From Patescibacteria group bacterium (GTDB taxonomy: Bacteria > Patescibacteriota > Minisyncoccia > Phycocordibacterales > SBAW01), in the NCBI GenBank assembly GCA_019752125.1, contig JAIEMM010000002.1, positions 3,062 through 67,061 on the forward strand: 64,000 nucleotides of DNA. Direction: 5' to 3'. Shown here piece by piece: positions 23,987-30,880 of the stretch. Made by a program: the position numbers and the translations under genes. Position 1 is the stretch's first letter, and each line of letters begins with the position of its first letter. The notes below the pieces were generated by a model. That model made no database searches. It was given only the letters and a program-made list of their open reading frames with translations, and was not told the origin of the DNA.

Positions 23987-26900
23987 CTACGCTACCTCTT
24001 CTTTGCTTGCTACAGGAGTTGCTGCTTCTGGAGCTTGCGGAGCGAAGCGGTTAACCAATTTTTCTTTTGGAGAACCCTTGAAGCCGGTACCTGCTGGGAT
24101 AAGGCGGCCGATGATAACGTTTTCTTTGAGACCTTCGAGTGGGTCGGTTGAACCGTACATCGATGCCTTAATGAGCATACGTGTCGTGTTCTGGAATGAT
24201 GCTGCTGAGAGGAAGCTCTGGCGTGAGAGCGAGACATCCAAGATACCCATCACGAGTGAGTCACCCTTTGCTGCTTCACCACCTGCTTCTTTTGCCACAT
24301 CGCTTGCGGCATTAAGGTCTGCGGCGCTGACAACATCGCCTACTGAGTATTCAGTACCTCCAGCATTTGAAACTTTGAGACGGCTGAACATCTGGCGGAT
24401 GATAACTTCAAGGTGTTTTGCTGAGATGTTTGCACCCTGGAGTTCGTAGATCTTCACGATTTCAGAGATGATGTATTCCTGTGTTTTCTCCTTACCTGCG
24501 TACTTGAAGAGGTCTGAGAGGTCGGCTGAACCGTCCGTGAGGAACTGGCCCTTCTCGATTCTCTGTCCTGCCTTCACAAGCGGCACGCGGCGGAAGTTCA
24601 CATCATATTCAATCGTATCTCCAGCCTTAGCAGATTTCTTTCTATATTCCAGGTCAGGCGCAACGATGATGGTCTTTTCTTTACCTTCATCTTTGATCTC
24701 AATGACTTCGCCTGACACTGATGCAATAACCGCAGGGTTGCGAGGTGCACGGCGTTCGAAGATTTCTTCAACGCGTGGGAGACCTTGTGTGATGTCGCCA
24801 CCAACTGCAGCGGCACCGCCGGCATGGAAGGTACGCATGGTGAGCTGTGTGCCCGGCTCGCCGATTGCCTGTGCGGCAACTGTACCGACAGCTTCACCCA
24901 GTGCGACTGCCTTCATAGTGCCGAGGTCTGCGCCGTAGCAGTGTACACAGAGACCACGGTGAGCCTTACATGATACTGGTGAGCGAACAATTACTGAGTT
25001 CACTCCCATATCTTCAATATGTTTTGCGTCAGCGTGAGTGAGGAAATGACCTTTCTTGTACTGGACCTTTCCTTCATGCTCCACGTCTGCTGCCAAATAA
25101 CGGCCGCTAATGTTCTGCGCCAAGAAGGTACCGATACCTGATGCGCTTTCGCGTTTGATTTCAAGACCATCCTTCGTACCGCAATCTTCAAGCGAGATAA
25201 CAACGTCCTGCGCAACGTCGAAGAGACGACGTGTGAGGTACCCTGCTTTCGCGGTGTTAAGCGCGGTGTCTGAAAGACCCTTACGTGAACCGTGCGTTGT
25301 AATGAAGTACTCAAGCGGAGAAAGACCTTCCTTCATCGACTTGGTAATTGGGAATTCGATAGCTTCACCAGTTGGAGATGCGATAAGACCCTTCATGCCG
25401 GCCATCATGGTCACCTGCGCGATAGAACCGCGGGCACCAGACTTAAGCATGTCGGATACGCTGCCGTGTGCTGCGAGCGTACCTGGCATAAGTTTTTCAA
25501 CTTCAGATTTTGCTCCGTGCCAGATTTCAACGTTCATGCGGTAGCGTTCTTCTTCAGAAAGAAGACCGTTCTGCCAGTGCTGTACGACTTCTGCCGATTT
25601 CTTTTCTGCTGCTTCAACAATCGCATCCTTTTCTTTTGGAACGCGGATATCATCGAGTGACCAGGTTGTGCCTGACTGTGTCACATAGCGGAAACCGAAG
25701 TTCTTAATTCTGTCGAGGATTTCTGGAATCTTCTCAAGGCCGTAGCGAGCAATAAGGTCGTCGAGAAGTTTTGTAAGACCCTTCTTGTCGATTGGGGTGT
25801 TGATGAATGGGTAGTCGCTTGGGAAGACGGTGTTGAAGAGCAAGCGGCCTACCGTTGTTTCAAAGAGTTGTCCGCCGAATGCTGCGTACTTCTCTTTATC
25901 AGATGGCATAACTTTCACCTTTGCCTGGAACCCTACGTGACCGTAGTCGTACGCCAAGATTGCAGAGTTTGGTGATGGGAATGCAAGACCTTCGCCCTTC
26001 ATACCCTCAACCTCCTTGGTCATCCAGTATGAGCCCAAGAGAATGTCGAGGAGTTTCGATGCAACCACTGGTTCACCGTTACCTGGCTTGAGGATGTTCT
26101 TCGTTGCCGACATAATCTCGCGTGCTTCTGATTGAGCTTCCGGAGAAAGTGGGACGTGAACGGCCATCTGGTCGCCGTCGAAGTCTGCGTTGAACGCAGG
26201 ACATACGAGTGGATGGAGCTGGATAGCATTGCCTTCAATAAGGATAGGTTGGAAGGCCTGGATACCGAGGCGGTGGAGTGTTGGTGCGCGGTTCAAGAGA
26301 ACGTATTTATCTTTGATGACATCTTCAAGAATTGCCCATACCTCTGGCACACCTTCGTCGATAAGACGACCTGCACCACGGATGTTGAATGCGAGTTCTT
26401 TTTCAAGCAACTTGCCGATAACGAATGGGCGGAAGAGTTCCAGCGCCATGTGCTTAGGAAGACCGCACTGGTTGAGGCGGAGTTCTGGACCGACAACGAT
26501 AACTGAGCGGCCTGAGTAGTCGACGCGCTTACCGAGCAAGTTCTGACGGAAGAGACCGTGCTTGCCCTTCAAGTTGTCTGAGAGAGACTTGAGAGGACGA
26601 GTGCGAGCCTGTGTTGTTGCAGAGAACGCTGCACCACCGTGGCGGATAGAGTTGTCGATAAGTGCGTCAATTGCTTCCTGCAAGATGCGCTTCTCGTTGC
26701 GCAAGATGACATCTGGCGCGCTGATTTCGATAAGTTTCTTGAGGCGATTGTTGCGGTTGATAACGCGGCGGTAGAGGTCGTTTGAGTCTGATGTTGCGTG
26801 GCGGCCGCCGTCGAGGGCAACCATCGGGCGAAGGCCCGGCGGAATAACCGGGATGCGGCTGAGGAACATCCACTCAGGGCGAACATTCGCACGGATCATA

Positions 26901-30880: not shown

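Follow-up and report, generated by a model that had tools for sequence, protein, structure and literature searches.

The 64,000-nucleotide stretch of DNA analysed here (the window; contig JAIEMM010000002.1 of assembly GCA_019752125.1, from a Patescibacteria group bacterium) carries on its minus strand a single uninterrupted open reading frame (ORF) that encodes both large subunits of RNA polymerase, RpoB (beta) and RpoC (beta'). This frame occupies positions 23987..30880 and comprises 2297 codons when counted from a GTG, as seen in the ORF list and in the stop-free translation. The DNA is about 50% GC, a composition at which chance cannot produce an open frame of 2297 codons. An earlier reading, made from the letters of this DNA without database searches (the sequence-only reading), had proposed one 2297-aa rpoB plus rpoC frame at these positions; the ORF list, the translation, Pfam and NCBIfam all bear this out. 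To that proposal we add that the gene lies on the minus strand and that its likely start is 11 codons downstream of the listed GTG.

The position of the start follows from comparison with relatives (below, L-numbers denote loci from genome and metagenome scans, and P-numbers denote protein representatives). The translation from an ATG at 30847 begins MREQKFF..., relatives open with MREQKF- or MRDQKF-type N-termini, and locus L083 has a stop 4 codons upstream of the methionine equivalent to this ATG. Because the relatives begin in this way and L083 is closed just upstream, ATG 30847 is almost certainly the true start. From this conserved ATG to the stop, the fused rpoB-rpoC gene (rpoBC) spans 23987..30847 on the minus strand and encodes 2286 aa with a computed mass of 253.2 kDa, close to the roughly 255 kDa suggested earlier. 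Judged by the relatives' starts and the L083 stop, the 11 additional in-frame codons that reach back to the GTG of the listed ORF (30848..30880, minus) are probably untranslated.

Both halves of the protein are complete. The RpoB module (27710..30847, minus) ends in ...RGLALDVEL and was delimited by Pfam domains Rpb2_1, 2, 3, 45, 6 and 7, by NCBIfam models PRK00405 and TIGR02013, and by alignment to beta chains in the PDB. The RpoC module (23987..27649, minus) runs from FDAVRIRPASPE to the stop and was delimited by Pfam domains Rpb1_1 to Rpb1_5, by TIGR02386 and by its motifs. Pfam assigns aa 30-1058 to Rpb2 domains 1-7 and aa 1077-2173 to Rpb1 domains 1-5. The full-length rpoB model (NF001616/PRK00405) matches aa 16-1058 over model positions 4-1095 of 1096 with 1439.7 bits (cut-off 896), while TIGR02013 gives 1423.2 bits for RpoB against a cut-off of 801.15; the full-length rpoC model TIGR02386 matches aa 1081-2269 over positions 2-1144 of 1147 with 1464.2 bits (cut-off 963.5). 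With full-length matches above the curated cut-offs, the two halves qualify as RpoB and RpoC in their own right. In addition, the zinc-binding CxC...CxxC (aa 1120-1138), the catalytic NADFDGD (aa 1553-1559) and the trigger-loop RTFHAGG (aa 2005-2011; all in ATG numbering) are intact. A complete rpoB is thus followed by a complete rpoC in one frame and one ORF, which is the fused beta-beta' architecture, and the in-frame fusion proposed by the sequence-only reading holds for both modules.

Within the beta' N-terminal region, an AlphaFold model of a fragment, poor in its other parts, contains an all-helical block at about 26900-27280 (ORF aa ~1190-1316, ATG numbering) with a predicted local distance difference test score (pLDDT) above 90. 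Here Pfam Rpb1_1 covers 372 residues on a 312-position model. This region thus appears to carry a lineage-specific helical insertion.

Between the last conserved residue of beta and the first conserved residue of beta' the translation holds a 20-residue linker, LRNGSIVPNARKTPGAEVSD, encoded at 27650..27709 (minus). This agrees with the earlier placement of the junction at about 27640-27700, and the translation contains ...NARKTPGAEVSDFDAVRIRPASPE..., so that the linker quoted in the sequence-only reading is indeed read through without a stop or frameshift. Its first half varies between relatives and is rich in glycine and proline. The second half is conserved, and contains the motif R-K-T-P-G-A-E (27659..27679, minus; CGC AAA ACT CCA GGT GCA GAA), which was recognized by its conservation in 82 relatives and 15 loci. 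Among the 82 relatives, 61 have 19 residues between LDVEL and DFD (range 17-24), and each position of (R/K)-K-T-P-G-A-E is kept in 68-79, the first residue being R or K in 79. At the level of DNA, the motif codons in the 15 loci are CGC, AAA/AAG, ACT/ACG/ACC/ACA, CCA/CCG/CCC/CCT, GGT/GGC/GGA, GCA/GCC/GCG/GCT and GAA/GAG. Amino-acid changes in the motif number only 4 across these loci (5 with the deep-branching L014), despite many synonymous changes at third positions. Since the peptide has been kept through so many synonymous codon changes, this substitution pattern indicates that the linker is translated and is under purifying selection.

In alignments with chains of known structure, PDB beta chains extend as far as the L of ...LDVEL, which corresponds to residue 1339 of 1342 in Escherichia coli beta and to residue 1102 of 1119 in Thermus thermophilus, and PDB beta' chains align from their residue 3, just before FDAVRIRPASPE. 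Because chains of both kinds align nearly to their own termini at the junction, the tether is little longer than the subunits' own tails would be if placed one after the other. The 60 of 148 PDB sequence matches listed comprised separate beta and beta' chains only, with no solved fused chain among them. Tryptic peptides expected to cover the junction are GLALDVELLR, NGSIVPNAR and TPGAEVSDFDAVR.

One genome per GTDB species was scanned with the junction as query. The same fused junction was found in 14 species representatives (L003-L016) at 82-93% identity to the query. All have the same linker and no stop at the junction, and their ORFs are 2287-2324 aa long where they lie wholly inside the contig. 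These genomes come from many unrelated studies; 6 of the 14 are titled Candidatus Adlerbacteria, and the others Paceibacterota, Nomurabacteria, Parcubacteria, Patescibacteria or Saccharibacteria. A separate scan with an RpoC-only query revealed a further fused metagenome contig, L083, with 2296 codons from stop to stop. In the case of proteins, a full-length search returned fused sequences of 2243-2307 aa. From cluster representatives we could score the linker in 82 (75-89% identity; 1340-2299 aa, most of them 2270-2299), drawn from NCBI, JGI, ENA, MGnify and Logan and lying on contigs of up to 774 kb; the closest clusters are 88-89% identical to the window protein. These 82 clusters share LDVEL-x(17-24)-DFD with (R/K)KTPGAE. 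The comparison with related genomes that had been proposed as a check therefore finds the same fusion in 14 species genomes, one metagenome contig and 82 clusters.

Neighbour-joining trees built from conserved blocks of RpoB and RpoC unite the fused sequences of this type in one clade, in which the window sequence nests with L003, L004 and L005. We call this group Candidatus Adlerbacteria-type RpoBC, a clade defined within the present analysis by ...LDVEL-x(9-11)-(R/K)KTPGAE-xx-DFDAVRIRPASPE, a length of about 2277-2299 aa and dnaG as the next gene, all of which the window gene displays. The NCBI taxonomy places Candidatus Adlerbacteria within the Parcubacteria group of the Patescibacteria group. 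Taken together, these data lead us to conclude, with a probability of roughly 0.9, that rpoB and rpoC are genuinely fused in frame in the window, that the fusion extends across a whole lineage, and that the bacterium is Candidatus Adlerbacteria-like (Patescibacteria, also known as the candidate phyla radiation or CPR; Parcubacteria group). This goes beyond the sequence-only reading, since the fusion is a clade-wide Candidatus Adlerbacteria trait and is independent of the two textbook cases discussed below.

Several sequences met in these searches were set aside. Junction-spanning "proteins" of 300-800 aa were dropped as evidence of fusion, as their contigs are frameshift-ridden long-read assemblies. 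Ten junction fragments that matched both fused-family NCBIfam models were uninformative on taxonomy, because these models simply cover both halves. P0007, which looked like an unfused close relative, was rejected on finding that it starts inside the fused junction (LFDVELLSHGAPARSLRKTPSAE...). P0117, another such candidate, has an ordinary unfused tail; its similarity is limited to the highly conserved beta C-terminus, and it probably lies outside the fused clade. In two ENA long-read assemblies, L001 and L002, frameshifts split rpoB and rpoC into 5-7 gene calls.

Natural beta-beta' fusions have previously been described in the Helicobacteraceae (Helicobacter and Wolinella) and in Wolbachia, so that the literature supports the earlier description of this architecture as rare but known. 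The RpoBC of Helicobacter and Wolinella (NF007172/PRK09603) is likewise a natural in-frame fusion of a complete beta and a complete beta', and a clade-defining rare genomic change; that of Wolbachia (NF011417/PRK14844, ~2839 aa) occurs in a reduced-genome, host-dependent alphaproteobacterial lineage. When scored against these two models, the window protein reached 2097.2 bits for NF007172 (cut-off 5372) and 1991.3 bits for NF011417 (cut-off 4632), which places it outside both families. As these scores fall far below both cut-offs, they argue that the Adlerbacteria fusion is a case of convergence with an independent origin and not of family membership. An origin apart from that of Helicobacter is also indicated by the different phylum and the unrelated linker, and the Helicobacter-type protein is ~2890 aa long as against 2286 aa in the window. 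The window protein is some 550-600 residues shorter than both known families, which is consistent with compact CPR polymerases.

Fusions have also been engineered. According to a paper that cites Severinov et al. (1997), engineered beta-beta' fusions sustain the growth of E. coli with transcription properties unchanged. Engineered Mycobacterium bovis and M. tuberculosis RNA polymerase fusions with the 10-aa linker LARHVGGSGA are active, and are routinely used for production. Because such fusions are active, they show that a short tether between beta and beta' is structurally tolerated; the tether in those cases is an artificial one of 10 residues, whereas the window has a natural one of about 20 with a conserved RKTPGAE.

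If the window gene is expressed as its sequence implies, rpoBC would be translated into a single polypeptide of ~253 kDa that supplies both large subunits, with the C-terminus of beta tethered to the N-terminus of beta' via about 20 residues. The fused chain would then combine with alpha2, plus omega where the organism has it, to form a normal core RNA polymerase, and the tether would force 1:1 synthesis of beta and beta' and pre-associate the two.

In distantly related bacteria of this class, among them Taylor-, Nomura-, Kaiser- and Zambryskiibacteria (63-71% identity in the junction region), rpoB and rpoC are orthologous but unfused, and have in common with the window a compact rpoB-rpoC-dnaG arrangement. 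The tail of rpoB in these genomes varies, is often acidic and closes with a stop codon, followed by a short spacer, an AT-rich leader and the ATG of rpoC, with roughly 30-400 nt between the conserved anchor motifs. In the first scan, made with the junction query, rpoB and rpoC were in the same frame at 80 of 80 loci, 65 of them unfused. We considered whether this might reflect a constraint on frame, through readthrough or an ancestral fusion. This idea was rejected, since an unbiased scan with RpoC alone found a shared frame at 26 loci and differing frames at 53, as expected by chance (1 in 3); the initial result was a ranking bias of the junction-spanning query. The unfused rpoC leaders are AT-rich and A/C-rich, and a Shine-Dalgarno-like motif was seen at 2 of the 137 rpoC starts of unfused same-class relatives (L017-L162), which suggests that these lineages initiate translation, of rpoC at least, independently of a Shine-Dalgarno motif.

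A pair of loci provides an unusually clear snapshot of how a fusion forms. The unfused L037 has at its junction ...GAC AAA TAA GAA ATA ATT ATC ACC AAT ATG ACA AAC TAC AAA ACA ATT CCA GCT GAA..., that is, a TAA stop and an 18-nt in-frame spacer (6190-6220), while the counterpart in the fused L038 (10600-10625) reads ...AAT ATT AAT AAA AAT ATG ATC AGT AAT TAC AGA ACC GCT CCG GGA.... The L038 ORF has kept the AT-rich former spacer and the rpoC ATG (AAT ATT AAT AAA AAT ATG), matching the spacer and ATG of L037. This comparison indicates that the L038 fusion is the product of a lost stop codon, with the in-frame spacer and the old start now read through. Within this one small clade, fused (L038, P0208) and split (L037) states may therefore interconvert by very few mutations.

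The same loci bear on the origin of the linker in the window clade. The unfused beta' of L037 begins MTNYKTIPAETNHFD, which resembles xxRKTPGAExxDFD, and the fused P0208 has ...KKKKMNSNYKNPGAETDQFE at its junction. Since RKTPGAE in the window clade occupies the place of this native beta' N-terminal peptide, we infer that the motif is the former N-terminal peptide of beta'. The methionine that follows LDVEL in 72 of the 82 members (TTG in the window) may similarly be the old rpoC start. On this account, the rpoB stop and the short rpoB-rpoC spacer would have been lost, probably via an in-frame deletion that removed the beta tail, stop and spacer and joined ...LDVEL to the old start of rpoC.

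Further fused genes lie elsewhere in the Patescibacteria. Although fused, L038 and P0208 group with L037, whose genes are separate. P0209 is the fused member of a Kaiserbacteria-like group that is unfused in all other cases. A deeper clade, made up of P0211-P0215 together with L150, consists of fused genes throughout, and its linker (PLYETESERKDN) is short and unrelated. All share with the window the same phylum-level group, the same architecture and a similar length (2243-2307 aa), but their linkers show no relationship to that of the window, or a partial one at most, as with KKKKMNSNYKNPGAETDQ or PLYETESERKDN compared with LRNGSIVPNARKTPGAEVSD. In the neighbour-joining trees, unfused lineages separate these other fused lineages from the window clade. 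Because their linkers are unrelated, it appears that rpoB and rpoC have fused at least four times within the Patescibacteria, making this a rare but recurrent event; the count is approximate, as the neighbour-joining trees carry no support values. The members of the P0211-P0215 clade are full-length apart from L150 (1228-6867, 55% identity), whose ORF stops early inside rpoC after ...TALKTAQAG through either an assembly error or a real interruption.

Outside the CPR, P0216 is a fused protein of 3132 aa from genomes of 3.5-4.8 Mb (L163, 3001-12399). It is identical in more than 10 assemblies, on contigs of up to 4.8 Mb with sulfatase genes nearby, and has an unrelated linker of ~47 residues. 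Among proteins grouped at 50% identity, 22 of the listed representatives are at least 1800 aa long (P0260-P0342), and in 18 of these both junction anchors could be located; their linkers are mutually unrelated and range from 0 to 55 residues. In light of this, the fused gene seems to occur well beyond the two textbook lineages, although some of these representatives may be artefacts.

Could the window frame itself be an artefact? The sequence-only reading had named a single-base assembly error as the main risk, and one base would in principle suffice to erase the rpoB stop or shift the frame in an organism that really has two genes. In some relatives, rpoB and rpoC do lie in the same frame with a single stop between them, as in L037 with its TAA, and odd rpoB or rpoC fragments do come from error-rich long-read assemblies. 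Against this, a near-constant junction length (19 residues in 61 of 82) and a conserved motif recur across different projects, assemblers and databases, the linker has the substitution pattern of coding DNA, and the clade is without any relic of a stop, spacer or start context at the junction. The independent relatives, together with the synonymous variation within the linker, exclude such an error, and we regard an artefact as extremely improbable. The same can be said of a decaying or non-functional copy with working rpoB and rpoC elsewhere in the genome. The one point in its favour is that only 64 kb of that genome is visible; however, the fused gene is conserved over its full length at 75-89% identity to many relatives, its catalytic motifs are all intact, both modules score above equivalog cut-offs, and dnaG-rpoD synteny is conserved next to it. 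Moreover, contigs of 0.5-0.8 Mb from relatives, near the size of a whole CPR genome, bear the same fused gene, so that there is next to no chance that this alternative is correct.

A different question is whether the fused frame is used to make one chain or whether a separate beta' is still produced, by internal initiation at the ATG or TTG after ...LDVEL or by proteolysis in the variable half of the linker, with the free subunits doing the work. Several points weigh against a simple fusion protein. The case for a single polypeptide is made by analogy with Helicobacter; 72 of the 82 relatives have ATG directly after LDVEL and the window has TTG (27707-27709), also a start codon, so that some extra free beta' may come from an internal start; and the linker's first half varies and is predicted as coil. 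The lack of a Shine-Dalgarno motif is not usable against an internal start, because rpoC in the same class starts without one anyway (present at only 2 of 137 unfused loci). The AlphaFold model of the junction fragment (467 aa, 36 sequences) is of low confidence, with a mean pLDDT of 66.8 and a predicted template modelling score of 0.43, and shows the linker mostly as coil at a pLDDT of ~64-76, which makes it too weak to define linker geometry. On the other side, the codon after LDVEL is not a start in several members (CTC in L016, TAC in L014, and codons for T, Q and A in other clusters), and while authentic unfused rpoC starts follow AT-rich, A/C-rich leaders, the window codon lies within GC-rich coding DNA. 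With no stop codon, beta of normal length cannot be made as a free subunit, so the fused chain must exist, and in Helicobacter and Wolinella the two subunits are described as being made as one large polypeptide. We therefore consider it improbable that separate subunits carry out the function, and favour a fused beta-beta' chain as the probable working form.

The neighbourhood of rpoBC is conserved in part. Downstream and in the same orientation lie dnaG (21861-23633, minus) and, beyond it, rpoD for the primary sigma factor (20577-21833, minus), both identified by Pfam; the order rpoBC-dnaG-rpoD recurs in L001, L002 and L038. The upstream neighbour is trmD (31706-32431), and rplJ-rplL do not precede rpoBC. 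The 825-nt gap between trmD and rpoBC (30881-31705, minus) contains two small ORFs of ~43 and ~74 aa, the second of which is cysteine-rich. Also in this gap are a tentative promoter-like site, TTGACG-16-TATACT (31076..31103, minus), which rests on 10 of 12 consensus matches and would give a leader of ~230 nt to the ATG, and, just upstream of it, a tentative but strong terminator-like hairpin with a 13-pair stem and a T-run (31145..31175, minus). The hairpin tentatively suggests that rpoBC is transcribed separately from trmD and the small upstream ORFs.

In the literature searched we found no description of this fusion in CPR, Patescibacteria or Parcubacteria, which is not proof that it has never been noted. 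In NCBI and JGI records, the fused CPR proteins (~2280 aa) bear just the name "subunit beta'" or "subunit beta", never "beta/beta'" (for example HWO07064.1, HEY5383123.1, MES2203286.1 and MGC9598788.1), and the two fused-family hidden Markov models have cut-offs beyond the reach of these proteins. Naming them as beta only or beta' only can distort marker-gene counts, completeness estimates and rpoB or rpoC phylogenies of CPR genomes.

What we describe is a new lineage, and apparently several, with an already known architecture. As engineered fusions already show that a tether is tolerated, it raises no new question about transcription and does not change our understanding of RNA polymerase. 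It does mean that Candidatus Adlerbacteria, which is a large uncultivated lineage, and several smaller CPR lineages join the short textbook list of organisms with naturally tethered beta and beta', and that the fusion provides a clean rare-genomic-change marker for the Adlerbacteria clade. We also raise, as a speculative and rather unlikely proposal, that with at least four origins in the Patescibacteria the tethering of beta to beta' is a recurrent, selected solution in ultra-small CPR bacteria and not a neutral accident, with RKTPGAE as a functional element of the tether. If so, the advantage could lie in guaranteed 1:1 stoichiometry and assembly in cells with very few polymerases and fewer factors to help in assembly.

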